64,000 bases of DNA from Syntrophales bacterium (GCA_040767195.1 JAXGPA010000001.1:512001-576000), one strand, 5' to 3'; shown: positions 2,570 through 26,949, counted from the stretch's first letter. The notes: a model not told the origin generated them from the sequence alone. Numbers and translations are program-made.

Positions 2570-5281
2570 TTAGAAATCCCACGCCTCATCGAATGGGTGT
2601 TTTTTAATAGGCAACGTCGTTGAGGCCTTACCGGAAGCACCCGTCCCGTCGACCACCTCGAGGGTGATGACATGCTCGCCCTCGGAAAGCTGTTCCGCCG
2701 TCACCTCCATGCCCTGGCCGAGGGGACCGTCCAGGCTGGAAGACCAGGAGAAAACAGCCGTATCGCCGACGGGGACACCCTCCTCGTCATAAGCGGACCC
2801 GGTGAACGTGAGCGTCGGGTACTTGGTGTAGTAAACAAAGCTTCCGTCGCTGTCCTCTTGCGGCGACTTATTGACGGAAATCCGGACAACCAGTTCCCGG
2901 GCCGGCTTATCGACCCCCAGGGCGTTCAGGCTGTCCAGGAGGGCGCCGTAGGCGTTTACCTGGAGGGCGATGACGGCTTCGCTGGACGCATAGCGGATGT
3001 AATTCGCCGAAGAGACATCCGTTCCGAAGTAGTCATCGTTGACAAAGGCCACCTCCTTCGCGCCGGGCGCCAGGGTCAGTCCCTTCACGGCCACCTCGAG
3101 GCCGTCGTTGCTGTAAAGGGTCAGGGTGATCTCCGCCGGGATCTCCTGTGCGTTGAGAATGGAAATACCCGTCACGGCCGTATCGTTCAGAAGCGGCAGA
3201 ATGCCCGATTTCCCCTCGAGACGGAGGGACCGGGACCCGGAAAGAAGGGTGGCGCCGGTATTGGCAAAAAGCTCGAGGCCGTCGGCCAGTTCCTGATCGG
3301 AAACCACGGCGAGCCAGGACACGCCGGAGGAGAATCCCAACGCGCCGGGATAGGTCGTGTATTTCGAGCGGGCCTCCACGGAAACCTCCTCGGCCCCCAG
3401 GAACAGACCGGCATCGTCATAGGCCGTGATGGTCACCTGGGCGGCATTTTCCGACGGATTGACGAGGACCATCGCCGTCCGCCAGGTTCCATTTTCCACC
3501 ACCTGGGGGAAGATCTGTTCCGCGCCGGTGCGGCCCGAAATCAGGTAGGCCTCCATGGTGTGGGTGTTCATGATCTTCGCCATGGCGACCACGCCGCCCC
3601 GGGAGGGGCTCTCGTCCTTGACGATGAGATAGGACGCCCCGGAAACGGCGCCTTCGGGAAAAATCGTCCCCACGTCGACAAAGGCCTGCTGACCCGGTCC
3701 CAGGAAAAGGGGCCGGGATTCCTCGACCATCCCGTCGGCCAGGACGAGCCGAAGCGTTTTTTCCTCCCCCGTCGTGTTCACGAGGTCGACTTCCGTCGAC
3801 CACATGCTGTTGGAAGCGACCTGGCAGGCATACAGGTCGCCCTGTTCGGCCAGGGCACCGCTTCCCACCGCCGGCACCATGGCGCTGTACTTTTCGAAAG
3901 CGAAGAACCGGTTGCAGCCGACGACGGAATCACCGGAGGCGCGGAAAAGGGCGAACCCCTTTCCTTTCAGGCCGGCGTACTTGGGCTGTATCCCGTCGAT
4001 GATGAACACCTTCCTCTGAAGGGGATAGATGGTCAGTTCTTTTGGCTCGGCAGCCGCCGAGCCGTCCTGGTTGTAGACCTCGAAGGTGCCCCTCAGGGTT
4101 GTAACGCGGCTTGCGTTCACCAGGAAGATCTCGGTGCGCCACCCCTGTTCGGCGGTGACATAGGGGAAATAGAGGACATGGGGCCCGTTGACCGGTTTGG
4201 GGTCCTCCCCGGGATCCACCGGACCGGGCGGCGTCGGGGATGTTTCTGTCTGAACCGTGAACGCCATCTTGCTGACAGGCCCCGAACCCGACGAATTTGT
4301 CGGCTGAATCGACCACTCGTATGTCCCGTCGGCCAGGGCGTCGGGGATCCGGTAAGCGCACTGCCCGTCAGCGGTCACCTCATCGGCCCGGAGGGTCCCG
4401 CTGAAAGCGACGGAGGAATTTCCGCTTACGGCGAGCCGGTAGGCGGTGGCGCTTTTTTCCTCGGTCCATTTGAAAAGGGGCCTGTCATCGGAGGTCGTTC
4501 CGGAGGGCGAAATGAGCGTGACGGCCTTGGGCGGCCCTCCGACGGGAAGGCTGTGGGTCGTGAATGTGACATAGAAATTTTCGTAGAATCCCTCCTGATC
4601 GAATCCCGGATAGACGATCCCGATTCTTCCGGTCTCGTTCTCGAGGCCGGCTACGGTGTTGCCCTTGCCGCGGGAGTAGACCTTGATATAATTGAACTGG
4701 ATGTCGTTGGAGCCCTCATGAAGGACCATCTGGAATGTGACGTTGTAATCGTCTCCAAGCCCGGTAGACGAATCGAAACGAACATTTTTGAACTGAACGA
4801 TGAACTGTCTTTTTCCTGAAACCACCCGGGTTTCGTAGTACACCCTGTGCTTGTCCCCTCACGTGCCGCACGCGAACAGGTCATCCCAGAAGCCGGCGAT
4901 GACGCTGTTGATCGCATCCAACCGGTCGGGAAGACCGTTTCCCTGGTACGTCTGGCCATTGATGACGGCACCGGGATCGAAGGACAGGAGTCCGTTTGTG
5001 GCCACACTTACAGAACTGTAATACTGACCGTAAAAGTTGAAACGAAAACCAATGGGAATGTCGGGAACAACGATGTCTCCCGAAGTTCCTATCTGCACCG
5101 GTATTCCAGTCGACGTCCGCTCGATGTCCGTCCAGGAAAAAGCCGGAGCTCCTTCTTCGTGACTGTCGTAATACCGGTACCCGTAACTGTCAGGTCCCCC
5201 CGTCAGCGCCCAGGACAGAGCCGGCACGGACAGGAAGAGAACGAAAGAGAAGGCCAGGAATTTCATGACGGTTCTCTTCAT
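2570..5281 (-). CDS. Secreted multidomain surface protein and putative selenoprotein (~903 aa): signal peptide, nidogen-like domain with C-G-T-U, Fn3-like domain, four repeats of the shared surface domain, PKD-like C-terminus
   Basis: ORFs 4859..5281 and 2570..4843 share a frame and are separated only by TGA at 4859-4861 (...GAC CTG TTC GCG TGC GGC ACG TGA GGG GAC AAG CAC AGG GTG TAC TAC...). The TGA lies inside the nidogen-like motif FWDDL...VYYET. AGGAGG RBS before ATG 5281; signal peptide MKRTVMKFLAFSFVLFLSVPALSWA. Confidence 0.75.
4818..4834 (-). promoter_or_regulatory. Candidate bacterial SECIS hairpin for UGA at 4859-4861
   Basis: mRNA GAAACC-CGGGU-GGUUUC, a perfect 6-bp stem with a G-rich loop starting 30 nt after the UGA. 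Confidence 0.5.
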
Positions 5282-5412
5282 TTTCTATGGGTCCTCCTTT
5301 TTTTTGAAATCCCCATGAAGATGTCACGGGTTTATTACCATGAGGCGGCCTTTTTAACAACCGGTTTTCGTCTCTTTTCGAAGAGAAGGCAACCGCAACT
5401 GACGTCAGATCG

Positions 5413-5428
5413 TGCAAGTAACATACCA
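5413..5428 (-). promoter_or_regulatory. sigma54 -24/-12 promoter
   Basis: Minus strand TGGTATGTTACTTGCA = GG-N10-GC with TTGCA, about 130 nt upstream of ATG 5281. Confidence 0.65.
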
Positions 5429-5474
5429 TGCCGCGGAACTTAAGGCGCACCCGGGCTAAAAATTCTTTATGCCA

Positions 5475-7337: not shown

Positions 7338-8618
7338 TCACGGGCCGCCTTTCTTCTGCACGTCGATGGCGATGGGAAGATGAACCTTGCAGTTCACCGT
7401 TCGCCGGCTGGCCGGGGGAAGCACCTCGAAGACGCAGGCGTGGTCCCACCAGTCGAGAAAGGCGGGCTGGTCGGGATCGTGGCCGACGGCCGCCGTCACG
7501 CTGTAGTTCCCCTTCAGGAGAGGAAGCCGGAGACGGAAGGTCACCAGGAGCTCTTCCCCCTGCCGGAGAGACGGCAGACTCCGGCCCTCCACCGCCGTGT
7601 TCGTTCCCAGAAGGTCGTTGCCGAACCGGTCCCGGATGATGAAGCCGACGACGGCGGGGCTGCAGTCCACCCGGGCCAGGATACGCACCCCCACGGACAC
7701 GGGCTGATCGAATTCGACAACCTCGAGGACGCCGCCCCCGTCGTCCCGGAGGCGAACCTCCTCGATTCTCGCCTCTCCCGTCCCGATCCGTTTTTCCTTC
7801 CCCCGGACCGCCGCCTTGGTTTCCCCGGCTTCTTTTTTCATCACGGGGGGTTTTTTCGGCGCCTCCTTTTTCTCCTGCTCCCGATGGGCGATGAGCCCGT
7901 GATAGTAGTTCGCCACGTCCTCGGCCTTGCCCTGGAGAACCAGCCTTCCCCTGTCCAGGAACAGGGCTTCCTGGCACAGGCTCTTCACGGCGCCGATGCT
8001 GTGGCTGACAAAGAGGAGGGAGACCTCGCGCTTCTGGAGGGACCGGATCCGGTGGATGCATTTGTGCTGGAAGGCGATGTCCCCCACGGCCAGGGCCTCG
8101 TCGATGACGAGGATGTCCGGTTCCATGTGGATGGTGCAGGCGAAGGCGAGCCGGGCGTACATGCCGCTGGAATAGAGCTTGACGGGCCGGTCGAAGAAAT
8201 CGCCGATGTCGGCGAAGGCTTCGACCTCTTCCATTTTTTCCCGGGTTTCCCTTACGGAAAACCCCATGAGACCGCCGTAGAGCATCACGTTTTCCCGGCC
8301 CGTGAACTCCCTGTTGAACCCCGTGCCCAGCTCGAGGATGGAGGCGACGCGGCCCGCGGTTTTCACCGATCCCGACGTGGGCGCCAGGTAGCCGCAGATC
8401 ATCTTGAGAAGGGTGCTCTTGCCGCTTCCGTTGAAACCCATGATCCCCAGGGTGACGCCTTTCCGAAGCCGGAAGGAAACGTTCCGGAGGGCCCAGAAAT
8501 CCTTGTGAAAGCTCTTTCCGGAAAAGGAAAGGGCCTCCCTGATCCTGTCGTTGGGAGAGGCGTAGATCTTGAACTTCTTCGACAGGTTTTCGCAGATGAC
8601 GGAATATTCTGGTTCCAT
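7338..8618 (-). CDS. wzt: Polysaccharide ABC transporter ATP-binding subunit with Wzt C-terminal domain
   Basis: Walker A GFNGSGKST, YSSGMYARLAF, DEALAVGD, C-terminal GTGEARIEEV domain. Start set at MEPEYSV. Confidence 0.92.
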   Translation of the reverse strand: MEPEYSVICENLSKKFKIYASPNDRIREALSFSGKSFHKDFWALRNVSFRLRKGVTLGIMGFNGSGKSTLLKMICGYLAPTSGSVKTAGRVASILELGTGFNREFTGRENVMLYGGLMGFSVRETREKMEEVEAFADIGDFFDRPVKLYSSGMYARLAFACTIHMEPDILVIDEALAVGDIAFQHKCIHRIRSLQKREVSLLFVSHSIGAVKSLCQEALFLDRGRLVLQGKAEDVANYYHGLIAHREQEKKEAPKKPPVMKKEAGETKAAVRGKEKRIGTGEARIEEVRLRDDGGGVLEVVEFDQPVSVGVRILARVDCSPAVVGFIIRDRFGNDLLGTNTAVEGRSLPSLRQGEELLVTFRLRLPLLKGNYSVTAAVGHDPDQPAFLDWWDHACVFEVLPPASRRTVNCKVHLPIAIDVQKKGGP

Positions 8619-8637
8619 TAAATCCTTCACTGGGCGA

Positions 8638-9459
8638 TCACAGGTATTCGGCAAAGTGGCCCTTGAGCCGTCGGAAAATCCAGCCGCCGATGAACAGGGC
8701 TGTCAGGGCGAAGAACAGGTAATAGAGAAAATCCACGGGAAGGATGCCCTCGTTCGTCAGGAGGGCCCTGCGGTACCCCTCGGTGATGAAGATGAAGGGA
8801 TTCAGCCTGAGAAGGTATTGATAGGATTCTGGAATGATGGAAGCGGGATAGATGATGGGGCACAGGTAAAACCACAGCTGAAGGACGAGGTTCACCACCT
8901 GTCCCACGTCCCGGATGAACACGTTGACGGAGCTGATGATCCAGCTGAGACCCAGGGCCAGGGAACTGAGGCACAGGAGATAAAAAGGTAGGGTGATGAC
9001 GGCCCAGCCGAGGGACGGCTGAAAGACCAGGAGCAGGGCGACCAGGACCCCGAGCCCGACGAGGTGGTTCGTCAGGGCGGCGCCGATGATGACGACGGGA
9101 AGAAGTTCCGACGGAAAAGGCGTTTTCGTGATGAGGTTCTTGTATTTCTCGATGATTCCCACGGAGCTTCTCAGGATCTCCATGAAGGTGAGCCACGGCA
9201 GGAGGGCGCAGAAAAGCCACAGGGCAAAAGGCGTCTCCCCGATCGTCCGCCCGAAAACGAGCGAAAAAACGAGGCTGTATATGGCCACAAGAAGGAGCGG
9301 ATTCAGGATGGACCACAGGATCCCCCCCACGGAACCCACGTAGCGGGCCTTGAAATCCCGCTGAACCATCATCCAGATCACCTGGTGATGCTTCGCCGCC
9401 CGGGAGAGAAACTTCCTGAAGGACGCCACCAATCCCAGCATGCCTTTAAATCCTTTCAC
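8638..9459 (-). CDS. wzm: Polysaccharide ABC transporter permease
   Basis: RDFKARYVGSVGGILWSILNP, RDVGQVV, PIIYP motifs; adjacent to wzt. Confidence 0.92.
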   Translation of the reverse strand: MKGFKGMLGLVASFRKFLSRAAKHHQVIWMMVQRDFKARYVGSVGGILWSILNPLLLVAIYSLVFSLVFGRTIGETPFALWLFCALLPWLTFMEILRSSVGIIEKYKNLITKTPFPSELLPVVIIGAALTNHLVGLGVLVALLLVFQPSLGWAVITLPFYLLCLSSLALGLSWIISSVNVFIRDVGQVVNLVLQLWFYLCPIIYPASIIPESYQYLLRLNPFIFITEGYRRALLTNEGILPVDFLYYLFFALTALFIGGWIFRRLKGHFAEYL

Positions 9460-9506
9460 CCGCGTCTTGAGGCCTTGTCTCTATTTGCCGACGGCGGCCG
9501 GGATAG

Positions 9507-10547
9507 TCAAGAGGAAAATCCCCTTCCGCCATGAAGCCACCCTTTGTTTTCCAGCACGGTCACGAGCCCCCCGGTGAACCGGCGGGCGTCCCGGAAATCC
9601 AGGTGGGAACCCTCGGGGCATTCGTAGGCGTTCAGGAGGGGTTCATCCATGAAATGGATGGTGTCCGCCCCCGTCAGGGCGGCGATGCGGTCCCAGTAAA
9701 CATTCCGGGGATAGAAGGTCTCGTCGATCGTCCAGTGTTCGCCGCTCGTGGGAAGGCGCAGGAAAATGACCCGGCCTCCCCGAAGGACGATTTTCCGCAC
9801 CCAGGGGGCCGTTTCCGCCGCGTCTCTCTCCCAGGCCGACGGCGGCGGCGGCGGATTCTCGGCGTAAATTTCCCGAATCCGCCCGGTCCGGTAATTCCGG
9901 AGCCTGGGGAGGTTGAGCCGCATGTAATCGGCCTCCCGGGACCGGTCCCGGAAAGTGAGGAGATACCGGTGATCGGGCAGTTTTCCCAGGACATCCAGGT
10001 TGTTGATCAGCCGGCGGATGTGGAGATAGGGATCGACGACGACGAACCGCTCCTGTACGGCCGTCTTGATCTTCCGGTTGATCCGGTTGTTCAGGGTGGA
10101 ACGCCTGTGAAAATAATCGACGAACTCCTGCTGGTCGTTCCAGTACTTCTTTTCGAAGCCCATGGCGGTGATGGCGCACAGGACGACGCCCCGGAACCGG
10201 TCGTCGTCGGCGAGGTCCCGGAGCACCGCCAGGGGGTGGCGGCCGTCAACGGCGAGCTGGATGACCTCGTAATCGGGAAGACGGTCTTTCAGGACCTTCA
10301 GGGAAACCCCGAGCTGAACCCGCGAGGCCCCGAGAATGACGAGTTTTTCCCGGCCCGGGGCGTCGACCCGGAGACGGTGGCAGGACCACAGCTCGGGATC
10401 GTCGGTCACCGAGGGGACATGGCGGTCCAGGCGCCAGAGGATCTCCATGCCCCCGAGGAGGAAGACCCCGAGAAGGAGACCCGCCAGGAGGGATCTCATA
10501 AAAAAGGCGCCCGGCGCCCGGTCAGAACTGGAAATAGATGAACGCAC
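9507..10547 (-). CDS. SGNH-like (AlgJ/DltD-type) partner of the MBOAT acyltransferase
   Basis: N-terminal TM, VILGASR (GxS), C-terminal EGSHL (D/ExxH). Probable GTG start at 10547 overlapping the MBOAT FIYFQF end. Confidence 0.65.
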   Translation of the reverse strand: MRSSISSSDRAPGAFFMRSLLAGLLLGVFLLGGMEILWRLDRHVPSVTDDPELWSCHRLRVDAPGREKLVILGASRVQLGVSLKVLKDRLPDYEVIQLAVDGRHPLAVLRDLADDDRFRGVVLCAITAMGFEKKYWNDQQEFVDYFHRRSTLNNRINRKIKTAVQERFVVVDPYLHIRRLINNLDVLGKLPDHRYLLTFRDRSREADYMRLNLPRLRNYRTGRIREIYAENPPPPPSAWERDAAETAPWVRKIVLRGGRVIFLRLPTSGEHWTIDETFYPRNVYWDRIAALTGADTIHFMDEPLLNAYECPEGSHLDFRDARRFTGGLVTVLENKGWLHGGRGFSS

Positions 10548-11949
10548 GGTCTTCTCCCGAAAGGACGGCAATGCCGACGATCATGCCGGCGATGAGCAGG
10601 GACCGGAGCCACCCGGGCGTTTTTTCGGCCACCACCCGGAGGGACCGGTCCCGCAGGAACCAGTGGGCGGCCAGGAGCAGCGCCATGACCGTCCCCGTGA
10701 TCAAGAGATCGGCAAAGGGAAGAAAAATCGTCTTTTCCCCGCCACCGGGCAGGCCCGCCAGGGAACCCATGAGCATGAAGGCCTGATCGAAGGTCCGGCT
10801 TCGGAAAAAGACGAAGACGAAGCACCACAGGGCAAAGGTGAAGAGGGCGGCGGACAGGGTCACGGGCAGCCCGGTCTTCCAGGCCAGGGGCCGGGTCACC
10901 CTTTTCAGCACCCGCTCAACCACGATGAGAAGTCCGTGAATGCCCCCCCAGACGACGTAGGTCCAGGCGGCGCCGTGCCAGAGACCCCCGATGAGCATGG
11001 TCACGACGGTGTTGAACTGGGTCCGGGCCCACCCTTTCCGGCTTCCTCCCAGGGGGAAATAGACGTAATCCCGAAGCCACGATGAAAAGGAAATGTGCCA
11101 GCGCCTCCAGAAATCGGTGAAACCGGCGGCGGCATAGGGACAGTTGAAATTCTCCATGATGGCGAAACCGAAACACCGGGCAAGACCGAGGGCGCACAGG
11201 GAATAGCCCGCGAAATCGCAGTAGATCTGGCCCGAAAACGCGGCGCACCCGAACCAGGCGGAAAGGAAACCGGGAACGCCCTTTCCGTCGTAGACCGCCT
11301 CCGCCACGGGGGCCAGAAGCCCGTCGGCCAGGGCGATCTTCAGGAAAAGGCCGAGAAGCAGAAGGGAAAGCCCCCAGGCCACCTCATCCCTGGGGACGTC
11401 CGGCGGCCTTTCGCACTGGGGAAGGAAATCCCCCGCCCGGACGATGGGGCCCGCCACCAGCTGGGGGAAAAAGGACACGTAGAGGGCGTAATCGAGAAAG
11501 GAATGCCAGGGCTTCATCTTCCCCCTGTAAATGTCGATGGTGTAGGAAAGGGTCTGAAAGGTGTAAAAGGAAATCCCCACGGGGAGGATCACGTCCACCG
11601 GGGACGGGCTGAACTGAACGTTAAGGAATGACAGAAGCTGATTCAGGTTGTCGATGAGAAAACCGGCGTATTTGAAATAGCCGAGGAGTCCGAGGTTGAC
11701 GGCGAGGCTCGCCGCGAGAAACCCTCGCTTCTTCCCCGGCCGCCGGGCCGACGCGATGCGCCGGGCCAGGAACCAGTCGGCGACGGTGGAAATGGCCAGA
11801 AGGAGGACGAAGGGCGGGTTCCAGGCGGCATAGAAGAAATAACTCGCCCCGAGAAGCCAGACCTTCCTGGCGCGCCAGGGAAGGGGGAGCCGATAAACGA
11901 GGAAGACGACGACGAAAAAAAGAATGAAGGTGAAGGAGTTGAAGAGCAT
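10522..11949 (-). CDS. MBOAT family O-acyltransferase (AlgI/DltB-like)
   Basis: MLFNS, LPVGISFYTFQ, FFPQLVAGPI, FWRRWHIS, GLWHGA, C-terminal FIYFQF. Confidence 0.95.
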   Translation of the reverse strand: MLFNSFTFILFFVVVFLVYRLPLPWRARKVWLLGASYFFYAAWNPPFVLLLAISTVADWFLARRIASARRPGKKRGFLAASLAVNLGLLGYFKYAGFLIDNLNQLLSFLNVQFSPSPVDVILPVGISFYTFQTLSYTIDIYRGKMKPWHSFLDYALYVSFFPQLVAGPIVRAGDFLPQCERPPDVPRDEVAWGLSLLLLGLFLKIALADGLLAPVAEAVYDGKGVPGFLSAWFGCAAFSGQIYCDFAGYSLCALGLARCFGFAIMENFNCPYAAAGFTDFWRRWHISFSSWLRDYVYFPLGGSRKGWARTQFNTVVTMLIGGLWHGAAWTYVVWGGIHGLLIVVERVLKRVTRPLAWKTGLPVTLSAALFTFALWCFVFVFFRSRTFDQAFMLMGSLAGLPGGGEKTIFLPFADLLITGTVMALLLAAHWFLRDRSLRVVAEKTPGWLRSLLIAGMIVGIAVLSGEDRAFIYFQF

Positions 11950-12076: not shown

Positions 12077-12493
12077 TCAGGCGCCGGGGAGTTTCAGGGT
12101 GGGGGTGAGATCGACGCGCCAGGCGCCCTTCTCCCATACCCACGTGTCCTTCGCTGTCAGGTCGAAGACGAACGCCTTTACCCCGACCCTGTATTTTACG
12201 GCCACCTCCGCCTTGTCTTCCTTATCGAGAAGGGTCACTTTCTCGATCTCGAAATGTTCGATGTTCAGGTTCGCCGACTTGACGAATCTCACCCGGGACA
12301 CTTGTCTCTTGAATTCCTCTGTGGCCAGATCGTAAGCAGCCCCCCATTCACCGTTCATTTTGGCCGTCCAGAACGCCGTCACGTTCTTCATGAGATTCGC
12401 CTCCGTCTTGCCGTAACCCAAAAGGCCGGCACAGGAGACCAACAGAAGAAGGCCAACGGCGCAGCACAAAACCTTTACCGCTCCATTCATCAT
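12077..12493 (-). CDS. Putative lipoprotein
   Basis: Lipobox LLLVSC after a hydrophobic stretch; ATGA overlap with the upstream gene. Confidence 0.75.
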   Translation of the reverse strand: MMNGAVKVLCCAVGLLLLVSCAGLLGYGKTEANLMKNVTAFWTAKMNGEWGAAYDLATEEFKRQVSRVRFVKSANLNIEHFEIEKVTLLDKEDKAEVAVKYRVGVKAFVFDLTAKDTWVWEKGAWRVDLTPTLKLPGA

Positions 12494-13647
12494 TTCGTTT
12501 CCCCTTGATCTTTCTGCAGCATGAGCTCCCTGTGCTTTTCCGAGAGTTCTTTCCAGAGTTTCTTCGCCTCCTCGAACATTCGTTTATCCACGTCCGCGTC
12601 CCTTGTTTTCATTTCTTCGGTGAGCTTCTTGTAAATGTCGTCCGGCGCGGACCCGATCATCCCGGCGATCCGCGGATCGCCCGGCACGGACCGGTCCAGG
12701 GAAACGATCCCGTTCTCCCCCGGGACTAATTTCCCCGTCTCTCCCCGTATGAGGGTGGCATAGCCGAGGTCCTTTCCCATGTAGTTGGCCCGGTAAACGG
12801 GAACGCCGGACGGGGCGTCACCGGGAGCCCCCGCTTCTGCTCCACCACCGGAACCGCCGCAGTCGCCCGTTTTTTCCTCGAAGGCCGCTGATCCGCCCCC
12901 TTCCGAAAACGGGGAGGCGTCGTTTCCGCAGTAGATGACGAGATCCAACCCCTTCAGTCCGTCCACGACTTCAAGGGTTTCCTTCCTGCCGCAGCTCGAA
13001 AGGAGAACGACCCCGTCCGCTTTTTTCCGCACTTCCGGGATGAGGCTTTCGAGAACGCTCCGGGGGGATGAGACTTGAAAGTTTTTCCCCTCTTCTCCCG
13101 TCAAGGCGGCGATGTTCTCCTGAAGCCTGGGAGGCAGGACACCGATGAAGGCGATCCGGGACTTTCCGGCCTCCACGACGGTGTAAGGCACCCAGAAGGG
13201 ATTCAAAGCGCCGCTATATTCAAGATTCGCCGCCAGGAAGGGAAAAGACGCCTTTTCTCTCACATGATTAAGAAAATCAATGCCATGGGAGAATTCGTTT
13301 TCGCCCAGATTGAGCGCCCTCACGTTCATCGCCCCCAGGGTGGTGACGCCCAGTTCCGCAAGGACCTGAAGTTCCTTAAAAGAATATCGGCTCACGGGAA
13401 AGAGGTTCCCCGCGTCCACCAGGATGACGGGACCCTGTTTTTTTTCCAGTTCATCGATAACCCACTGTGTTCGGGCCAGACCGCCCGAATTATTTCCCCC
13501 TCACCCTCGGACAGGCGTCAGCCGCCCGAGGAGGTCTCCCGTGTAGACAACGGTGACCCTCGTTTCCTCTTCGGCTGAAAAAACAACGGCGGGAAACAAG
13601 GCAATCGCGCACAGAACGAGGGCGCAGGCCCACATCTTTCTCATCAT
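12490..13647 (-). CDS. UshA-like (5'-nucleotidase N-terminal fold) secreted selenoprotein, Sec at about residue 49, ~385 aa
   Basis: ORFs 13501..13710 and 12490..13419 are one frame: ...YTGDLLGRLTPVRG-TGA-GGNNSGGLARTQWVIDELEKKQGPVILVDAGNLF... GGAGGAG RBS before ATG 13647; signal peptide; SECIS-like hairpin follows. Confidence 0.85.
13470..13489 (-). promoter_or_regulatory. Bacterial SECIS-like hairpin for UGA at 13501-13503
   Basis: mRNA UUCGGGC-GGUCUG-GCCCGAA, a perfect 7-bp stem whose loop starts with GG 18 nt after the UGA; GGUCUG recalls the E. coli fdhF SECIS apex. Confidence 0.75.
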
Positions 13648-13716: not shown

Positions 13717-16176
13717 TTATTCGGTGAGACCGTCGCCCATGAGGCGCGTTCCGTCCCCCGTGGCGATGAGGTAAAGGCCGCACAGGGGCGTGTCTCCCGA
13801 CGAGATCCTGACATAACGGGCCTCCCCGGCCAGGGCCGCTCCGAAAAGATTTTTCAGGGTTCCGGCGATGCGCTCCCGGGGATTCAGCCGGCCCGTCCAC
13901 GCGCCCAGGGGGGCGCCCCCGGCGTCGTGAAGGGTCATGGTCACGTCCGTTGCGCCGTCGGAGGGATTCAGGACGGCCACCCCCGTTCCCCAGGGACCCA
14001 GGCTCGCCACGTGGGGCAGGTGAAGGACAGGCCCCGTCGCGGGCGCCCGAAGGGGAACCCCCGCCAGCTGGCCTCCCGTATTCGTACTGAAGAGAACGCA
14101 CCCCGTCAGCGGCTCGCCTTCCCGGGAGGTCACTTCCAGGGAGGCGATCTCACCGGGTAAGACGCCGGGAAAGATATCCGGAACGTCCCGGACGAGATTC
14201 TGGCCCGGCTTCAGGAGGCAGCCCGCCTCGCCGAGGAGCCAGCCGTCGGCCCGGTAAGCCCGGAAGACCGCCCGGGTGTCCCCGGCGCCGCTGTTCATGA
14301 CGAGGAGTTTTGTCCGCCAGTAAGCGTTGCAAGCCACCTGGGGGGCAAAAAGACGGGTCCCCGCCCCCTCCCGTCCCAGGGGGACGAGGGCCGTGTCGCC
14401 CGTCGATGACGACTCGTATGAGAGCTTCATGTATCCCAAAAGGGACGGCCGGCCGCTCGTCGTCGCGGCGGTCATGGTGTTCCCTCGAACGGGAGAATTG
14501 GGAAGGACCCAGAGATCTTTCGTATTCGATTCAAGTTTCTGACCCGGCCCGAGGGTGACCGTGTCGGTCCGCAGCGGATGGCCCTCGGAATCGAAGGACC
14601 GCCGTTCCACCTCCTCCGTCTCGTCGCCCGTGTTGATGAGCCCGTAAAAGGTTTTCCACCCGCCCGATCTCGCTGAATAGGGAAAGGAGACCTGTTCGAC
14701 CGCCCCGGTTTGGGAAAGGAGATTGGCGCCGTAGAGAACGCTTTTCCCCTCCGATAAGGCGTTCAGTCCTCTCAGGGTCTCGTCGCTGTCCACCCGGACA
14801 TACCCGCCTCTCGTTGAACCGAGTCCGAAATCGGCCAGAGTCCCCCTGACCTGGGAATCGAGGCCGTTGAACTCGTGAGCCTCTTCAATCCGCCCGGCCG
14901 GATCGATGGTGGCCAGGATGACCCGGCCCAGGGACCCGTCGGGATTGAGAACGGCCATCCCGTTCCCCAGGCTTCCGCCGGGGTCGTCCGGAAAATAGGC
15001 CGTGTTTCCCAGGCGCACGCTGAGGTAGAGATCGTAGACCGGTTCGTAGTAGGTCGTGTCGGAATAATAATCGGGCCTGACGGGAAGAACCTCGAAATAG
15101 TAGTGACCGGCTGCGTACGCCGTCAGCTCCAGGACGTCCTGATGAAGCAGCGTTCCGAGACGCTGCCGGTCGGGATCGGGACCGTAGACCTGGACGATAA
15201 CCTGCCCTTCCCTGGGGGGCGTGCCCTCACCGTTCACCCGTTCCGCCGTGATCCGGTCCCCCGGACCGAGAAATACCTTGAAAAAGTCGGCATTGCAGGA
15301 CATGAGCCTCAGGTGGCCTCCCGGGACGGCCGCGGCCGTCTCGAAGGTGTCGTTCTCCTCGTAGCGGTCATCGTAGGTGTAAACGATGTCCCGGACCCGC
15401 GCGTAGTCGATGCCGGGGTTGAGGCAGTCCCGGACGGGATCGTAGGATGAAACCCCGGCGCTTCCCCTTTCCCAGCCGCTTCCGGTGATCCGGCTTCCCT
15501 CGAGGGTGAAGTAATAATAAAACGTTTTCGCCGCTATTTTCGATCCCACGTAGTCCGGGGAGACTTCGTCGGAAACATAGTAGACTTTCGTCGTGTAATG
15601 CCGGGTGCCGCCCTCTTCCGTGTAACCGGTCTCGTACTTGTAGACGGGGTAATTCCAGACCTCATCGTCGGTGCCGAGATCCATGATGAAGGGGAGACCC
15701 CGCTCTCTGATGTATTCCTCCAGAATGGCATGGAATTCTTCCGGTGTTTCCGTTCGCAGGCGGATGCTTTTCGTGTAGGCGTTGTCGTTCGCCACGGTGA
15801 GAAGGGCCTTCTTGTCGCCCACGTAAAAAATCGTTTCCCCGTAAAATCCGCCGTTTACCGGTTCTTCCTCGAGGATGGCCGCCGCCGCCCAGCAATAGCA
15901 CATTCCCTCCCAGTACTTGGCGAAAGGATTCCGGTAATACCTCATCCCGTAAGCCGTCGCTTCTCCCCCGTACGTTCCGGAGGTGACGAAATCATATTTC
16001 TCCAGCGGCGACGGATGGCCCCGGTAGGCAGCTCCCGTGACAAGCCCCCCCTGCCTGAAAGGCCACCAGTACCCGGACCAGGGCACGTAATCGGCCTCGT
16101 ACGTGTCCGCCGCGGCGGACAGGGGAAAGGCAAGAAGAAGGGCCAGAAGGACCGCCGCGATCGATTTCCCGCTCAT
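13717..16176 (-). CDS. Secreted protein: GP42/TGase_elicitor-like transglutaminase domain, PPC-like domain, four repeats of the shared surface domain
   Basis: Signal peptide MSGKSIAAVLLALLLAFPLSAAA (ATG 16176 overlaps the upstream TGA). Motifs PWSGYWWP, SPLEKYD, WEGMCYCWAAAAILEEEP, GDKKALLT, FIMDLGTDDEVWNYPV. Confidence 0.75.
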   Translation of the reverse strand: MSGKSIAAVLLALLLAFPLSAAADTYEADYVPWSGYWWPFRQGGLVTGAAYRGHPSPLEKYDFVTSGTYGGEATAYGMRYYRNPFAKYWEGMCYCWAAAAILEEEPVNGGFYGETIFYVGDKKALLTVANDNAYTKSIRLRTETPEEFHAILEEYIRERGLPFIMDLGTDDEVWNYPVYKYETGYTEEGGTRHYTTKVYYVSDEVSPDYVGSKIAAKTFYYYFTLEGSRITGSGWERGSAGVSSYDPVRDCLNPGIDYARVRDIVYTYDDRYEENDTFETAAAVPGGHLRLMSCNADFFKVFLGPGDRITAERVNGEGTPPREGQVIVQVYGPDPDRQRLGTLLHQDVLELTAYAAGHYYFEVLPVRPDYYSDTTYYEPVYDLYLSVRLGNTAYFPDDPGGSLGNGMAVLNPDGSLGRVILATIDPAGRIEEAHEFNGLDSQVRGTLADFGLGSTRGGYVRVDSDETLRGLNALSEGKSVLYGANLLSQTGAVEQVSFPYSARSGGWKTFYGLINTGDETEEVERRSFDSEGHPLRTDTVTLGPGQKLESNTKDLWVLPNSPVRGNTMTAATTSGRPSLLGYMKLSYESSSTGDTALVPLGREGAGTRLFAPQVACNAYWRTKLLVMNSGAGDTRAVFRAYRADGWLLGEAGCLLKPGQNLVRDVPDIFPGVLPGEIASLEVTSREGEPLTGCVLFSTNTGGQLAGVPLRAPATGPVLHLPHVASLGPWGTGVAVLNPSDGATDVTMTLHDAGGAPLGAWTGRLNPRERIAGTLKNLFGAALAGEARYVRISSGDTPLCGLYLIATGDGTRLMGDGLTE

Positions 16177-16880
16177 TCCGTCACCATCCCGTATTCCATG
16201 TCGGCGTTTCTCCCGAAAAGACAAAAGGGCCGCCCCTCTTCCCAGTACTGGGTGAAGATCTCCCGGCCGCCCTCGCCGGTGACCCGGATTTCGATGAGCT
16301 TACGGTCCCGGAGTAACGGCGGAACCCCGTCGGGGTTCGTCACTTCCCGGACTTCCTGGGCCAGGAGGACTTCCCGGTAGAGCCCGCCGCCCGCGGCAAT
16401 CTCCCGCCGGTACGTCCGTACCGAGGGCACCTGGGCGGGAAAGGCGGGGAAATCGAAGGGGACGAGGGATTTTTCGGCGACAGCGGGCGTCCCATCGGGG
16501 TATTCCAGGGTGAAGGTCACCGCCTTTCCCCGCCGGCTCTGGGTGAGGTCGGCCCGGACCAGGGACCGGGAACCGCTGAATTCCAGGCGGGCCGCCTGGT
16601 CCAGGCGCCCGCCGGCGTCCCGCACCTCCACCGCCGTGCCGCCCGGCACGGCGGCTTCCCGTGACGGGAGGGGGAGGAAACGCCAGGTAACCGGTTCGGA
16701 CCATTTCTCCCGATCCAGGGCCGAGCGGTAGACGGCCCGTACGAGCCAGGCCTGTCCCTCGCCGGGAATCACGGGCTGAAAGACCGCATCCGCCGCGGCC
16801 AGGAGTCCCGGCGCGAGGGCCAGGATCACCGCCAGCCCGGCGGCTGTCGCTTTTCTCTTGAATGACGCAAACCGTCCCAC
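16173..16880 (-). CDS. Hypothetical exported protein
   Basis: ORF track 235 aa with a signal-like N-terminus; translationally coupled to the transglutaminase-like gene. Confidence 0.65.
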   Translation of the reverse strand: MGRFASFKRKATAAGLAVILALAPGLLAAADAVFQPVIPGEGQAWLVRAVYRSALDREKWSEPVTWRFLPLPSREAAVPGGTAVEVRDAGGRLDQAARLEFSGSRSLVRADLTQSRRGKAVTFTLEYPDGTPAVAEKSLVPFDFPAFPAQVPSVRTYRREIAAGGGLYREVLLAQEVREVTNPDGVPPLLRDRKLIEIRVTGEGGREIFTQYWEEGRPFCLFGRNADMEYGMVTE

Positions 16881-16965: not shown

Positions 16966-18318
16966 TTAGAAGCCCGCGTTCATCAACGGAGACAGCATGT
17001 CGTAGAGCCAGGACTTCATGGCCCACTCGACGGCATAGCCGCAGGGCCGCGCCATGGTGCTTCCACCGAAACCGCCCAGGAGCACGAACTCATAGCCGTC
17101 GGCCGGGAAGTTGGTCTCGATTTTCATCATCATGGGACCGGATGCGAGGCTCCCCATGCCCAGAGCGTCGAAGGTGTCTTCGTCCAGAACCCACGTCACG
17201 ATGGACTTGTCGAAGTCGGTGAGCTTCTTGGAGAGGGTGTTACCGTACTGATCGGTGAACGTCACCGTCACTTCCATGTCGGCAATGGAAACGCCGCCCA
17301 GGTTCGTCAGGGCGATTCCCGTAGCCCAGTTGTCGTCCTTCCCGATGACATAGGGGAAGTAGATGCAGCCGCCCATGAGCGTGTCGTCGCAGCACATGAT
17401 GCCGATTTCGATTTCGCACGCACACACGTCATCACAGGTGGGGCAAACGCCGCCCTTGCCGGTGACGAGTTCCGCGAGGACCTTCACGGTCTGCCCGGGA
17501 ACGATTTCCGACTTGACATACCACATGGCCGGCACGTTGAAGAGCCAGTAGTTGGTGCCTTACATTATTCCTTGGCATCGGCTGATCACGTAGCCGTTGT
17601 CCGTAGCCGTGCAGATCCGTGGCCGTGCAGATCTGCTTGACTCTCGCCGCCTCGGTGGTCGTGGGTTCGCAGACATCCTTGAGGTCCTGAACTCCCCTTT
17701 CGTGAGCAGCTTGTCGCAGGTGACGGCGGATCCCGTGGAACCGGGGGTCGTGAGATAGAGAAGAAGATCGCCACAGTTGAAGTACTGGGGGTTCTTCATG
17801 TAACGGGGATACTCATCGGAGCAGGCCAGTTTCAGATCGGTGAAGGTCTTCACGAAGATCTCGTCGCCCATGAAATACACGCCGTTCCCCTGGGTGATGG
17901 TGAACCGGAAGCCGACCGTGTTGCCATCCTCGAGAAAATCTTCAGGATCTTCGCACTCGCAGACGTCGAAAATCAGGCGGCAGTTCCGTCCAAGGATGCC
18001 GGACATCGCTGATCCATCACCGTTTGTTTTATAATGCGAGGGAAGATCGATACCCAGTTTCGAGAGATCGGCGTTGCCCAGGCAGGCCCAGCCCACCAGG
18101 TCGTGCTCATTCGGATATTCACCGATCATATCCCAGTCGAAATAGGTGCAGCACGGGTCCCCCTGTCCGAGGGTTATGCCGCAGTTGATGTTCCAGAGGG
18201 GACACTTGCAGTTCAAGCAAGCAGCCGACTCATCCGCCGCGGCCGCCGTCATGGCGAAGCCCATGACGAGCGCCATAGCCATCAGAGTAATCAATACTTT
18301 TTTCATTATCTCCTCCAT
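16966..18318 (-). CDS. Cys-rich secreted protein, candidate major S-layer subunit; frame disrupted around 17560-17700
   Basis: Signal peptide MKKVLITLMAMALVMGFAMTAAAA; more than 20 Cys. ORFs 17560..18318 and 16966..17535 are in frame across TAA at 17560. C-terminal CIYFPYV...WATGIALTN domain; own promoter and terminator. Confidence 0.65.
17601..17632. repeat. 16-bp tandem duplication (one mismatch)
   Basis: CCGTAGCCGTGCAGAT / CCGTGGCCGTGCAGAT inside the disrupted part of the Cys-rich gene. Confidence 0.85.
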
Positions 18319-18482: not shown

Positions 18483-19937
18483 TCAAAACCCTTCATCTTC
18501 CGCCGTCAGGGGGAAAAAAAGGATCCTGTTTTGCGTCTTCACATCGAAACATCGAAAATGTATCTCGCCGCTCACGTCCACCGTCACCGAGTAGATCCCC
18601 GGGCCGGCCTCGCAGCTGAAGCCGCCGGCCGAATCCGTTTTCAGCGGGACTTTCGTTCCATCCTGCCCCTGGACGGTCACGGCCACGCCTTCCAGGCCCT
18701 CTCCCCAGCCGTACAGGCCGTCCCCGTCGGCGTCGTGAAAAACCAGGCCGGTAATGTGCGTGCGGCGGCTGTCGGGGATAGGGATCCCGTAATCGGCCAC
18801 GGCCATGGTGACGTCTCCCCGGCATAAATCATAGGCGCTGTCGTCGGTCCCGAAATATCCCGAAAGGATTCCGAAGCCGGCGTGCCGGGTCCTTTCGTTC
18901 ATCATGTCAAGGCGCTCCTTCTGATCCAGGCGCTCCATGTCGCGGAAAAACCACGCCCGGAAAAAGCGCTGCAGCAGTTCCCCTTCGGGGATCGCCGGTT
19001 CCTCCCGGTACCACCGCCCCAGGGTCTCCCGGACGGCCGCCACGGGATATCCTTCCCCGGCCGCCCGGTCTTCCGGGTAAAGGCCGTCCGGTGTCACCGA
19101 GCCGAAATAGATCCGGTCGAACATGTCCCGAACATGTCCCTGGGCGGACCTGACAAGCCGCCCGTCCAGGGTCAGCGGCGGCAGGCCGTACCGAAGGAAA
19201 TACTCCCGGTCCGGATAGGCCCTGAAAAGGCTTTCCCCGCTCTTTCCCAGCCGTTCCGCCATGGCCAGGGGCTGTGCCCGGGCCTGGTTGATCCGGTAAA
19301 GCAGTTCCAGGTACGCCCGGCTCGGGCCGGAACCAAAGGTGCAGGTGGCCACGTACACGTTGGAGGACAGACCGTCCATGACGAGGATCCCGCCGTCAAA
19401 GGCAAGACCGATATCGTCGAAATCGGGAGAGAGAACGTATCGTTCCGCCGTCCTTCCCGGGTCGAACTCATCCCGGACGATTTTCTCGAAAAGGATTGTC
19501 ACGGCCTGGCCCGGATCCATGTAATTGGAAAAACTGACGAGACCCACCGTCTCGCCGATCCGGAACGCCAGGTACCCCGCCGTCTCGGCCCGCTCCGCCG
19601 GGGAGACGCCCCCCTCGCCACCGGGAGCGTAAACATCGTCTACGAGCATGTTCCCGTTCCCCGCCCGGGCCGCCTCATCGAGCCGGCCTTCTCTCACAAG
19701 GGGGCCGAAACCCGCCTCGAACAGGGTCTCCAGGCCGGGATCTTCCCGGAAGAGGGGCTCGAGATCGATGCCGAGGCGCGCCGCGGCAGCCCGGGGGTTC
19801 TCCCGGACCTCGTTGATCCTTTCCAGGAGCCACTGCTCTTCAAAGGAGAACTCCCCGTCGGCGGCGGCGGCACAGATGGGGAAAAGCATCACCCCCGCGA
19901 GAAGGACAAGGCTGAGACGCAGGACTTTTTTCTTCAT
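18483..19937 (-). CDS. Secreted protein with two CAP/SCP-like domains and a C-terminal SdrD-B-like domain
   Basis: Signal peptide; LERINEVRENP and LYRINQARAQP...PPLTLDGRLVRSAQGHVRDM; ITGLVFHDADGDGLYGWGEGLEGVAVTV. Confidence 0.8.
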   Translation of the reverse strand: MKKKVLRLSLVLLAGVMLFPICAAAADGEFSFEEQWLLERINEVRENPRAAAARLGIDLEPLFREDPGLETLFEAGFGPLVREGRLDEAARAGNGNMLVDDVYAPGGEGGVSPAERAETAGYLAFRIGETVGLVSFSNYMDPGQAVTILFEKIVRDEFDPGRTAERYVLSPDFDDIGLAFDGGILVMDGLSSNVYVATCTFGSGPSRAYLELLYRINQARAQPLAMAERLGKSGESLFRAYPDREYFLRYGLPPLTLDGRLVRSAQGHVRDMFDRIYFGSVTPDGLYPEDRAAGEGYPVAAVRETLGRWYREEPAIPEGELLQRFFRAWFFRDMERLDQKERLDMMNERTRHAGFGILSGYFGTDDSAYDLCRGDVTMAVADYGIPIPDSRRTHITGLVFHDADGDGLYGWGEGLEGVAVTVQGQDGTKVPLKTDSAGGFSCEAGPGIYSVTVDVSGEIHFRCFDVKTQNRILFFPLTAEDEGF

Positions 19938-19949
19938 GGATTGTTACAA

Positions 19950-19965
19950 TGCACAAGAAATGCCA
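19950..19965 (-). promoter_or_regulatory. sigma54 -24/-12 promoter candidate
   Basis: Minus strand TGGCATTTCTTGTGCA (GG-N10-GC); predicted +1 near 19939, next to ATG 19937. Confidence 0.5.
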
Positions 19966-20049
19966 GGCACGGGCCTGCCGAAACCACGGGAAAAAAGCCC
20001 TTTCGGAAAGACCTTCTTCGGGACACTGGTCAAAAGTGATCTTCTCTGG

Positions 20050-22521: not shown

Positions 22522-22687
22522 ATTCGAATGGCGCGGGCGTCAGCCTGAAACGGTGTCCGGCCTGGCCCGTCCTTCATTCCTATCGATTCTCTTTACCCCA
22601 TAAAAAAAGGGTTTCATACCCCGCTTCGCGCTCCCGCGCTGCTGCGCCAGGCGCCAGGGCCTCCCGGCTTCATCCCGAACCCTTCCA

Positions 22688-23554: not shown

Positions 23555-23575
23555 GGGATGGAAACGCAAGGACCC

Positions 23576-24634: not shown

Positions 24635-24711
24635 CCTTCAGGCCGGTTCAGAACCGCCGCCCCGCTGACCCTCCCGGCGGAGGCGACGCCCGGTGACGGA
24701 CAGAACCCCGT

Positions 24712-26949
24712 TCACGGGACCTCGGGGATGTCATAATCGATGATCGTTTCCGCCTCCCCGTTCAGATCGAGTTTCACCACGCCGATGCCCTCGCCGAGCC
24801 AGTAGTAGAGAGGCGGCAACGCATAGGTATCGCTACCCACATAAGATATAAAAAAGGAGTTTTTAGACTTAATCTTGATGTCTTGGGAAATCCGGATGAC
24901 GTTCCGGTAAAGGGAATCCCGGCTCGTCACATCCTCGATACCGACGATGGTGGTCTTGATCTCGATGCTGAGCGGTATATCCATACTAAAAATACCGCTA
25001 GATACTCTTATTGTGGCCGTCGTCGTGTCCTCGTAGACCTGGCCGACCTGGATGTTCTTGGGTATATAAAGGAGCGGCGCATCGAAAAGGACGTCGCCGA
25101 TCGGCAGCGGCTGGCCACCATTTTCCCTTAAGACGTAGTACATGCCGTGAAACTTGATCCCGTCGGCATCGCTCGTGAAATACTGCTTCGTTCCCGTGTC
25201 GTACTGGTAAACCAGGGTGGTGGCCTCCGAAACCGGTTTCGTCCCGCTAATGTCCGTCCGGGTTTCTTCACCCGACTCCTTTTCGTAGGTCCACCAGCTT
25301 CCCAGCACGAGGGGAAAGTAGTCCGACGCCACGTAGGCGGAGGGGTCGACGGACACGGCGGCGGTGGCGCTTATCTCGCCAATTTCGGCGGTCACGGTGG
25401 CCGCGCCGACTTCCTTGCCCTTCACGAGGCCGGCCTGGCAGATCGAATTCTCCACCGAGGCGGTCCCGCTGTTCGACGAGGTCCAGGCCACCTGGTCCGT
25501 GATCTCCCGGCACGTCCCGTCGGAATACCAGCCAAAGGCGCCCAGGCTGGCGGTCTCATGGATTTTCAAGGCCAGGACGTCGGGCATGATTTCAATGGAC
25601 GTGAGCACGGCCGGGGCCGGGGCCGGGTTCAGGCTTCTGATCGAGTCCAGGGTCTGACCGTTGGTGGAGGCGTTCATCTGGAAGGCCACCACCTTGTCTT
25701 CCGACGCATAGGCCAGGTAGGTGGCCCCTTCAGGCTTTGTGCTGAAAAGATAGTTCATGGAAGCCAGCGGCTCGCCCACCGGAAAAACGAAGGCCACCCA
25801 TTTCTGCCGGGGCCCGAGATTAATAACGGTGCTGTCGATCACGTCTCCCCCGTCGTCACAGGCATCAACGTTGACGGATGTACTTTCGGCATTGTCGTTC
25901 ACAAAAACGACGCCGGTCGCCGCGGAACCCGTTTCGATCTTCGGCAGGATTCCCGTCGTGGCCCCTTCCCGGGGCCCCATGTATCCGGCCAGCTGCCTGC
26001 TGTGGGCGAAAAGCTCAAACCCCGAGAGGGGCCTGGTCGCCGTGATTTTGGCCCAGCCGTCGGTGATGCCCAGTGGCAGCGTGCTCGCCAGGCGACTGAT
26101 CCGTTCGCCCCCTTTCAGGAGAAGATCGACAGGGGGCCGGGCCGTTCCGCCCGTCGTAAAAGGGGAAACGGTGATCGTGCTGTCCTGGTAGCTGGTGTTG
26201 TAGGCCACGATCCCCGTGTTCCACCCTCCGGTCATGACGAGATGGGGGTAATAGACCTGAAGGGCCACCTGGTCGTCCAGGGGAATGCCGTCGAGGACCC
26301 GGCCGTTGGAAAAGAGGATGAGTCCGACGATGCCTTCGGCCCCCCGGATTTTGGCCGCGCTGATCCTGGGCTGGGGGGTATCGTCGAAAAGCGCTCTCAT
26401 GAAGAAAACCTCGTGGCGCCCGGCCGCCACGGATTTCGTCTTCGTGATGCCCGTATCGAACTCGAAGCACATGTCGATGGCGGCGTCCGTCGTGTTGACG
26501 ACGCTCACGCCCGTGGCCCAGGTGTCCGTTGAGGCGATGTGGGGAATGAAGATTTCCCCCCGGGCCGGCGATTGACTGGCCGGGATGGCGACGCTGTATT
26601 TCAGGGGATCCTGAAATTTCAGGTACCCCACGGCGTTATCAGAAGTGGTGGAAAAAACGAGGTAGCCGATCGTTTTCCCACCGGCATAATCCCGGACAAG
26701 GTCGGCGCCCCAGAAAACCCGCTTTCCCCGGGGCGGCAGGGTCACGTCGATCTGGTCGATGAGAGCGCCGCTGTCCTCGTGGAGATCCAGGGTTCCCGAG
26801 ACGGAATCGCTGTCGCTTCCGTTGATCAGGCCGATTTCCGTTTCCCAGTAAGCGTTACTGGCAAAGTGGGGATAATAGAGATCCCCGTGGGCCGGCGACA
26901 GGGCCGTGAGTATAAGAGCCAGGGCGGCGAAAGCGATTTTCTTTTTCAT
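24712..26949 (-). CDS. Secreted protein: four repeats of the shared surface domain, Big_2 Ig-like domain, C-terminal beta-rich domain
   Basis: Signal peptide MKKKIAFAALALILTALSPAHG; repeats LYYPHFASNAYWETEIGLIN etc.; Big_2-like ITDQVAWTSSNSGTASV...GAATVTA; YFPLVLGSWWTY. Confidence 0.8.
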   Translation of the reverse strand: MKKKIAFAALALILTALSPAHGDLYYPHFASNAYWETEIGLINGSDSDSVSGTLDLHEDSGALIDQIDVTLPPRGKRVFWGADLVRDYAGGKTIGYLVFSTTSDNAVGYLKFQDPLKYSVAIPASQSPARGEIFIPHIASTDTWATGVSVVNTTDAAIDMCFEFDTGITKTKSVAAGRHEVFFMRALFDDTPQPRISAAKIRGAEGIVGLILFSNGRVLDGIPLDDQVALQVYYPHLVMTGGWNTGIVAYNTSYQDSTITVSPFTTGGTARPPVDLLLKGGERISRLASTLPLGITDGWAKITATRPLSGFELFAHSRQLAGYMGPREGATTGILPKIETGSAATGVVFVNDNAESTSVNVDACDDGGDVIDSTVINLGPRQKWVAFVFPVGEPLASMNYLFSTKPEGATYLAYASEDKVVAFQMNASTNGQTLDSIRSLNPAPAPAVLTSIEIMPDVLALKIHETASLGAFGWYSDGTCREITDQVAWTSSNSGTASVENSICQAGLVKGKEVGAATVTAEIGEISATAAVSVDPSAYVASDYFPLVLGSWWTYEKESGEETRTDISGTKPVSEATTLVYQYDTGTKQYFTSDADGIKFHGMYYVLRENGGQPLPIGDVLFDAPLLYIPKNIQVGQVYEDTTTATIRVSSGIFSMDIPLSIEIKTTIVGIEDVTSRDSLYRNVIRISQDIKIKSKNSFFISYVGSDTYALPPLYYWLGEGIGVVKLDLNGEAETIIDYDIPEVP

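Follow-up and report, generated by a model that had tools for sequence, protein, structure and literature searches.

Why would one genome attach the same domain of about 100 amino acids (aa) once to one protein and four times in tandem to three others? The question is raised by a 64,000-nucleotide stretch of DNA from a Syntrophales bacterium (GCA_040767195.1, JAXGPA010000001.1:512001-576000), which was analysed as a whole and is called the window below. Four genes in it, all on the minus strand of G000:C1, carry the domain: A, B and C, whose products we refer to as cargo proteins, and S, which encodes a candidate surface-layer (S-layer) protein with a single copy. G000 stands for the source genome, other G numbers for compared genomes, and P and L numbers for compared proteins and loci. 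The explanation that we favour, with a probability of about 0.5, is that the domain builds a shared four-part foot that is placed in the S-layer lattice.

A repeat family with a ceiling of four copies

The original prediction quoted 13 motifs as the openings of one shared domain, in a 4/4/4/1 pattern. All of them are present in the genes named, on the minus strand and with a spacing of 99-113 aa, and a hidden Markov model (HMM) of the 13 repeats recovers 4, 4, 4 and 1 copies in the window. Beyond the window, the same model finds a further four-copy protein about 7 kb away (G000:C1:503325-505364) and a two-copy protein (G000:C1:858321-860024). Chance motifs are ruled out by the profile scores together with a reversed-sequence control, in which the final HMM gave 0 matches in 3,581 reversed open reading frames (ORFs). 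The most divergent copies are the first repeat of B and the domain of S, many of whose pairwise Z values lie near 0. At the level of profiles, we derived four repeat classes from 150 outside proteins; HHalign aligns these classes with one another at probabilities of 99.1-99.7 and matches a profile of the S domain, made from an alignment of 31 S proteins, to all four at 97.0-98.5 (E 9e-11 to 4e-15). Because the classes derive from outside proteins, the mutual homology claimed at the outset is upheld independently of the original choice of motifs.

The repeats are position-specific: copies at the same position in proteins of different genomes share 26-29% identity, against 19-21% between positions, which rules out that they were newly duplicated from the local S gene. 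The four-repeat unit had a single origin and has been shuffled as a whole since then.

We searched 1.84 billion representative sequences with a profile of the 12 cargo repeats (E <= 0.001) and obtained 12,958 matches. For the best 150 of these, the search listed four stretches in 146 proteins and five in 4, and a recount gave four in 150 of 150, with a spacing of 99-109 aa in 90% of cases. As an ordering by total score would be expected to put longer arrays first, the ceiling of four looks real. A second sample came from genome loci picked by profile matches and comprised 69 distinct complete ORFs not cut by a locus edge, the single-copy ones including S proteins and fragments: 20 ORFs had one copy, 14 two, 6 three and 29 four, and none had more. 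Four slots can be made out in five of the six triples and two slots in the other: in three, which are B orthologues, the first slot has decayed, in another four motifs are visible by eye, a fifth runs on as 3+1 over a frame change, and the last consists of two copies plus a spurious match; one of the apparent pairs likewise spans four slots. Random copy number is ruled out by this ceiling. The expectation that copy number would not be random thus held insofar as no protein exceeds four and numbers in genomes with an S-type gene are nearly always 1, 2 or 4; it did not hold for apparent triads in G076 and G371. Circular permutation was considered for such triads and found no support in L114, L115 and L125, while L120 and L121 gained 1-5 bits only. 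The three-repeat proteins L114, L115 and L125 of G076 and G371 end in a C-F-V-D-S-L tail, and L120 and L121 in C-F-I-Q-A-L; the window gene at 27049-28824 ends in C-F-L-S-T-L-L-K. These tails resemble the CFI-box-CTERM sorting tail.

The tetrad is a portable module of about 410 aa (about 45 kDa) found on very varied cargo. It lies at the C-terminus in 101 of the best 150 of the 12,958 matches, at the N-terminus in 37 and internally in 9, and makes up nearly the whole protein in 3. Partners identified in the 57 of these 150 that were scanned include S8 subtilase, C11 clostripain and C14 caspase-like peptidases, serpin, GH16, nuclease, rhodanese, LRR, PKD, RCC1, CAP and beta-helix domains. A search of plasmids for the module found nothing. 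The relatives that have names are Syntrophaceae and other Desulfobacterota. The four-copy protein outside the window, read as G000:C1:503322-505470, has a rhodanese-like region by eye. The two-copy protein of G000 and 13 similar ORFs form a position-specific class of their own; its N-terminus is repeat-rich and propeller-like by eye. Small secreted proteins with one copy occur at G000:C8:28491-29084 and in G150 (L044-L048), several with a second C-terminal domain. They are the class closest to the S domain (21.7% mean identity) and are candidates for mixing into nodes formed by S.

Predicted fold and relation to the ASRAH superfamily

The structure of the module of C was predicted with AlphaFold2 (79 sequences), and S was modelled by way of its intact homologue P0001. 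The all-beta model of module C has a predicted local distance difference test (pLDDT) score of 96.2 and a predicted template modelling (pTM) score of 0.93 over 420 aa; given this pTM, the four repeats are predicted to pack in a fixed arrangement, as one rigid body. Its best structural matches are TM1070 (1NC7; Z 13.6, root-mean-square deviation (rmsd) 2.7, 103 residues aligned) and ASRT (2II7; Z 10.9), the next reaching 6.0. The P0001 model (pLDDT 73.9) matches the same two structures, TM1070 at Z 11.2 (rmsd 3.0, 107 aligned) and ASRT at Z 7.8, with the next at 6.8, and Foldseek places it on 1NC7 with probability 1.00 and a target template modelling (TM) score of 0.62; the body of S matches pilin/CnaB-type immunoglobulin (Ig) domains at Z 6-7. 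Foldseek with the whole module returned loose Ig strings alone (TM < 0.16), and sequence searches of the PDB gave nothing significant, ASRT chains appearing at E 0.14 among unrelated matches; the Pfam ASRT model matched 1 of 44 repeats weakly (E 0.06). The repeat is best described from these models as a beta-sandwich with a predicted ASRAH fold.

The ASRAH superfamily was defined by De Souza, Iyer and Aravind in 2009 from the TM1070 and ASRT structures (PMC2739507), and the original prediction overlooked that the repeat belongs to it. Its solo members TM1070 and ASRT are homotetramers with a cleft built partly by the subunit interface, and its other families occur as dyads or tetrads, which the authors propose to form homo- or hetero-tetramers that bind sugars; the three families described are intracellular solos, tetrads on Chloroflexi amidases and dyads on actinobacterial lipoproteins (PMC2739507). 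The repeats share with the superfamily the predicted beta-sandwich, a near-invariant Asn and the occurrence as solo, dyad or tetrad, the three apparent triads of G076 and G371 being the exception. The Asn ends strand 2 in 95% of 164 aligned domains and is invariant in the 12 cargo repeats of the window. ASRAH members conserve a Trp behind a polar residue where strand 1 starts; in the repeats, strand 1 reads L/I/Y-Y-F-P and a Trp (64%) opens strand 2. In contrast to the ASRT family, with its SHEshChhN signature, the repeat consensus W-x-T-G-I-A-x-x-N lacks the His and Cys ligands, and the repeat proteins are secreted fusions, unlike the stand-alone cytoplasmic ASRT-like members.

The domain superfamily, the logic of one, two or four copies and the idea that four repeats stand for a homotetramer are already known (PMC2739507). 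The main text of that paper, although its supplement may list more, describes neither secreted tetrads from deltaproteobacteria that are joined to dozens of types of cargo nor a solo copy at the end of an S-layer-like protein. The proposal in the original prediction that a four-repeat module mimics a homotetramer stands to this extent: there is one repeat family, a ceiling of four, a rigid predicted tetrad and a fold whose solo members are homotetrameric. In a mean-field direct coupling analysis of 169 modules, even the neighbouring-repeat control barely replicated (0.1-0.46 standard deviations), so that the lack of a signal between repeats 4 and 1 carries no weight. DUF5719 (PF18986) is likely another ASRAH branch: one repeat of A scores 30.3 bits against a cut-off of 26.2, although over only 55 of the 319 positions of the model, and 12 of 44 repeats match at E < 1. 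Our literature search found no paper naming DUF5719.

S as an Slr4-like S-layer candidate

The S gene is interrupted by an in-frame TAA that follows a garbled stretch of about 45 codons. Two metagenome proteins, P0001 and P0002, are intact and 96% and 93% identical to S over the part downstream of the stop, and contigs from four public runs of one study show several indels and variant blocks between 17560 and 18130. Most likely, variants of a hypervariable gene were joined into a chimera during assembly and the break is a result of this, and these differences suggest hypervariability at the level of strains. Variable blocks between close strains are typical of S-layer genes. Members of the S family are 360-450 aa long, with long forms of 570-680 aa; S has Cys pairs and a signal-peptide-like start. 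With respect to the abundance expected of an Slr4 protein, as the most abundant protein of the cell, the depth of RNA contigs is highest over S (92-224 and 404-811, compared with maxima of 51 and 222 elsewhere); the runs were chosen by this gene, contig depth cannot rank genes, and we do not count the difference as evidence.

Slr4 of Pseudoalteromonas tunicata forms a p4 layer, and its gene lies downstream of a dedicated type II secretion system (T2SS), according to the available parts of PMC7821379, PMC11094555 and PMC10765051. In the Atlas, 20 of the 30 language-model neighbour clusters of P0001 have Slr4 members (12-23% among the rows listed, score 0.92-0.93), and the S domain alone has one Slr4-bearing cluster (22%). 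The sole match of the Slr4 model (PF19526) in G000 is the S domain (E 0.017), and matches in the S family include G287 (E 2.6e-5; 24.3 bits, the best score in the family) and G378 (E 0.031). In all four S genomes tested, the contig that carries S also has a second gspD upstream of it, at about 8-9 kb in G366, G394 and G414 and at 50 kb in G001, each of which has another gspD elsewhere; with the second gspD that stands beside the Slr4 of G154, this makes 5 of 5 genomes tested. In the window, a T2SS cluster lies 24 kb upstream of S. S thus has in common with Slr4 a signal peptide, a place downstream of a T2SS, a language-model neighbourhood and weak profile matches on the C-terminal third of the model; it differs in being shorter, Cys-rich, under the family cut-off and from anaerobic Desulfobacterota-type genomes, and the accessible text of PMC7821379 reports no cargo family that has a domain in common with Slr4. 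We call S Slr4-like, not an Slr4 member, because of its neighbours, the weak PF19526 matches and the second T2SS on the one hand and a score under the cut-off on the other. The earlier label of S as an S-layer candidate is sustained in that its gene has the properties of the Slr4 type and lies next to a second T2SS. The structure papers PMC11410804 and PMC12175726, in their available parts, name p4 Vibrio layers and not Slr4. The Slr4 of G154 (G154:C111:5469-6917, L089/L094), which is over the cut-off, lies in a genome of the phylum Desulfobacterota, outside the reported, mainly gammaproteobacterial range, behind gspD and, by eye, downstream of a Wzm/Wzt-like pair.

The T2SS cluster of the window is the likely export route of S and the cargo, and the original prediction offered as an alternative that the domain is recognised by this system. 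On that account the domain would be a folded recognition signal of a dedicated T2SS that reads a tetramer or pseudo-tetramer. T2SS substrates fold before export, S, the cargo and the second T2SS are clustered, and the N-termini of A, B, S and C are all signal-peptide-like by sequence. A 410-aa module of 45 kDa would, however, be a costly tag, and it stands at either terminus or mid-chain. Actinobacteria and Chloroflexi have, to our knowledge, no outer-membrane T2SS of the proteobacterial type. Related ASRAH dyads and tetrads nevertheless occur in both (PMC2739507), and we judge a secretion signal to be very improbable.

Co-occurrence of the repeats with S

We surveyed 401 genomes of the phylum, G000 included, scoring at most 12 candidates per genome. 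Repeats were found in 29 of them, again counting G000. An S-type gene is present in 14 of the 28 other repeat-positive genomes and in 0 of the 372 repeat-negative ones, and it was found in 12 of the 15 genomes with at least 10 repeat matches as compared with 2 of the 13 with fewer. Twelve of the 14 calls rest on the body of S; the other two, both adjoining a B orthologue, rest on a C-terminus at a contig edge (G150) and on a single C-terminal domain (G195). As a rule there is one S gene per genome. Within a set of 40 close relatives, G001 alone has repeats or S. The co-occurrence is suggestive and not a statistic. B orthologues sit one small gene behind S, an order that is seen in 6 families, and a W-x-G-x-C-x-x-W motif is kept in 10 of 10 of them; one may speculate that B, a transglutaminase-like enzyme, cross-links or remodels the layer.

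A proposed four-part foot in the lattice

We propose that four S subunits would bring their single ASRAH domains together at a four-fold node facing the membrane, and that each cargo chain would fold its own four copies into the same foot. The S layer would likely be square, with the foot at the four-fold axis; the cargo foot would bind the same surface glycan as S and take a node-sized place in the layer, and cargo with two copies or one would reach a complete foot as dimers or tetramers, or in mixtures with S subunits. This presupposes that S forms a p4 lattice in which its domain tetramerises and faces the outer membrane, that cargo occupies lattice sites and that the ligand of the foot is lipopolysaccharide (LPS) or another surface glycan, all of which we infer. 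The second alternative in the original prediction, an anchoring domain, is likely the same mechanism viewed from the membrane side. More tentatively, the four-fold node of Slr4-like square S-layers could be an ASRAH tetramer in general, with the one-chain copy as a swap-in plug that displays cargo through the coat.

A number of observations weigh against a foot in the lattice. Nine of the 14 S-positive genomes belong to one family, and many assemblies are fragmented. Tetrads occur in G086, G357, G391, G400 and G448, in whose fragmented assemblies no S gene was found. Three detectable repeats with no demonstrable fourth are present in each of the three triad proteins (500-511 aa) of G076 and G371, and no S-type gene was found in either genome. 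S itself scores 14.4 bits against an Slr4 cut-off of 25, and of the six matches of the Slr4 model in the 401 genomes, one is a true Slr4 (G154), three are domains of the S family and two lie in proteins without a relation to it; the C-terminus of the G154 protein, a single sequence, aligns in register with the repeat profiles at a probability of 0.3-10, and no repeats were detected in that genome. No solved S-layer protein is among the structural matches of S, and the ASRAH tetrads on Chloroflexi amidases carry no S-layer claim (PMC2739507). Finally, in five genomes the cargo repeats share 17-20% identity with their own S domain and 16-19% with foreign ones. By sequence there is thus no sign that cargo repeats co-evolve with the local lattice, which speaks against mimicry of that lattice at the level of sequence. 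This absence fits a self-contained foot without an interface to S, and equally a glycan tether that is independent of the lattice.

Such a tether would be a four-site sugar-binding unit that attaches proteins to surface glycans (LPS, capsule, S-layer glycans) outside lattice sites, S being attached by the same domain and the four copies reflecting an obligate tetrameric fold. It agrees with the role that has been suggested for secreted dyads and tetrads of the ASRAH type, in which the cleft comes partly from the subunit interface (PMC2739507), with the tetrads and triads in genomes where no S was found, and with the glycan synthesis and export genes that fill the window. The strong genome-level tie to S and the place of B orthologues right behind it speak for a lattice instead, and a membrane-anchored protein of 60-150 kDa on a coated cell would presumably need a gap in the layer; on balance we consider a tether outside the lattice unlikely. 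It is less probable again that S does not form a lattice and is instead a tetrameric adhesin of high abundance, or else the main subunit of some other surface polymer, and that the repeat proteins are an expanded, unrelated surface family. The sub-threshold Slr4 score, the pilin- or adhesin-like Ig domains of its body and the missing match to a solved S-layer protein would be in keeping with this, whereas the Slr4-containing clusters that dominate its Atlas neighbours, the rule of one gene per genome downstream of a second T2SS and the highly variable blocks between close strains point to an S-layer protein.

Comparison with Gram-positive anchors

The proposed foot in the lattice invites comparison with the SLH and CWB2 domains. 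In these, three repeats build a pseudo-trimer, and the S-layer proteins carry all three themselves. Common to both systems are a single module in the S-layer protein and in many accessory enzymes and adhesins, at either terminus, and tandem repeats that form one symmetric binding unit. SLH and CWB2 are the anchoring modules of Gram-positive S-layers, as stated in the available text of PMC7821379, whereas here the fold is all-beta instead of helical and is unrelated, the proposed symmetry is four-fold and the host a diderm, and the major protein has one copy and would need four chains per unit. No Pfam match to SLH or CW_binding_2 was obtained in the proteins scanned, so that the likeness is functional only. 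By analogy, the tetrad may be regarded as an SLH/CWB2-like, though four-fold, anchoring module of diderms. A link of the ASRAH or tetrad domain to S-layers was not found in the literature searched, which leaves out most subscription journals.

Probable selenocysteine in gene A and possible further cases

Gene A is not one open frame under translation table 11, as it contains an in-frame TGA. The corresponding codon is also TGA in its homologues in G448 and G378, both fused to a four-repeat module; a Cys lies near the site in P0080 and L111, and four database proteins start just past it. SelA and SelB are over their cut-offs in G000; no selenocysteine tRNA over the cut-off was found there among the 150 of 357 candidates scored. 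The hairpin of -10.7 kcal/mol that follows the UGA is no better than shuffles, the fold having begun 3 nt past the codon. The TGA likely encodes selenocysteine, which would make A a secreted selenoprotein without a named family, and the pseudogene reading was rejected. Directly behind B, an UshA-like gene (12490-13647) has an in-frame TGA (PVRG*GG); its best match, below the cut-off, is the UshA-like (seleno)protein NF041198. The four-repeat protein at G000:C1:503322-505470 also has an in-frame TGA, after a signal-peptide-like start, and is possibly a further selenocysteine protein. A 2026 review of selenoproteomes lists UshA-like families and, in its available text, does not mention S-layers or a secreted or surface location (PMC13188914).

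Organisation of the locus

NCBIfam has no family for A, B, C or S, and Rfam none anywhere in the window (Table 1). The Wzm/Wzt exporter provides a context for a surface glycan ligand or for glycosylation of the S-layer. Between it and the S cluster, an MBOAT acyltransferase and an adjacent unannotated gene (9507-11949) are likely involved in glycan acetylation. Two islands of low GC content (39-51%, at 30000-36000 and 62000-64000; 60% in the surrounding region) contain glycosyltransferase and flippase genes.

Table 1. Features of the window, numbered from its first nucleotide.
Feature	Position	Strand	Description
Cargo protein A	2570..5281	-	903 aa if TGA is selenocysteine; signal peptide, N-terminal domain of unnamed family, Ig-like Big_13, ASRAH tetrad, C-terminal Ig-like part
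In-frame TGA of A	4859..4861	-	likely selenocysteine
Tetrad of A	2891..4183	-	repeats 3845-4183, 3527-3844, 3215-3526, 2891-3214
Wzm/Wzt ABC glycan exporter	7338..9459	-	amid glycosyltransferase genes
Cargo protein B	13717..16176	-	819 aa; transglutaminase-elicitor-like N-terminal domain and C-terminal tetrad
Tetrad of B	13720..15009	-	repeats 14701-15009 (degenerate), 14362-14700, 14035-14361, 13720-14034
Small gene between S and B	16173..16880	-	no NCBIfam family; G001 has a similar-sized ORF between S and B
S, candidate S-layer protein	16966..18318	-	Cys-rich, signal peptide, Slr4-like; predicted Ig/CnaB-type body and one C-terminal ASRAH domain
In-frame TAA of S	17560..17562	-	interrupts the S gene
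Single ASRAH domain of S	17050..17373	-	profile and structure match
CAP-domain/SdrD-B-like protein	18483..19937	-	immediately upstream of S; a similar C-terminus precedes S in G001
Cargo protein C	24712..26949	-	745 aa; N-terminal tetrad, Big_2 Ig domain, C-terminal domain without named family
Tetrad of C, module used for folding	25630..26889	-	repeats 26563-26889, 26266-26562, 25963-26265, 25639-25962
Type II secretion cluster	42632..53747	-	GspE, F, H, I, J, K, L, M, C-like, D

Significance

In Gram-positive cells, SLH and CWB2 modules bring enzymes and adhesins to the exterior of a crystalline coat. For Gram-negative cells with such a coat the corresponding question is largely open, and the tetrad is a concrete candidate in diderms. 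The work connects the orphan fold of TM1070/ASRT and DUF5719 with an S-layer family to which no solved structure has been matched, and it suggests that hypothetical proteins of anaerobic syntrophs and sulfate reducers, in their thousands, are likely displayed at the surface. A portable plug of 45 kDa would also be a possible tool for ordered display on protein lattices. If the plug reading is true, the displayed cargo would include proteases, glycosidases, nucleases, adhesins and selenoproteins, and the family, with some 10,000 sequence clusters, would represent a general and undescribed form of surface display in S-layer-covered Gram-negative bacteria.

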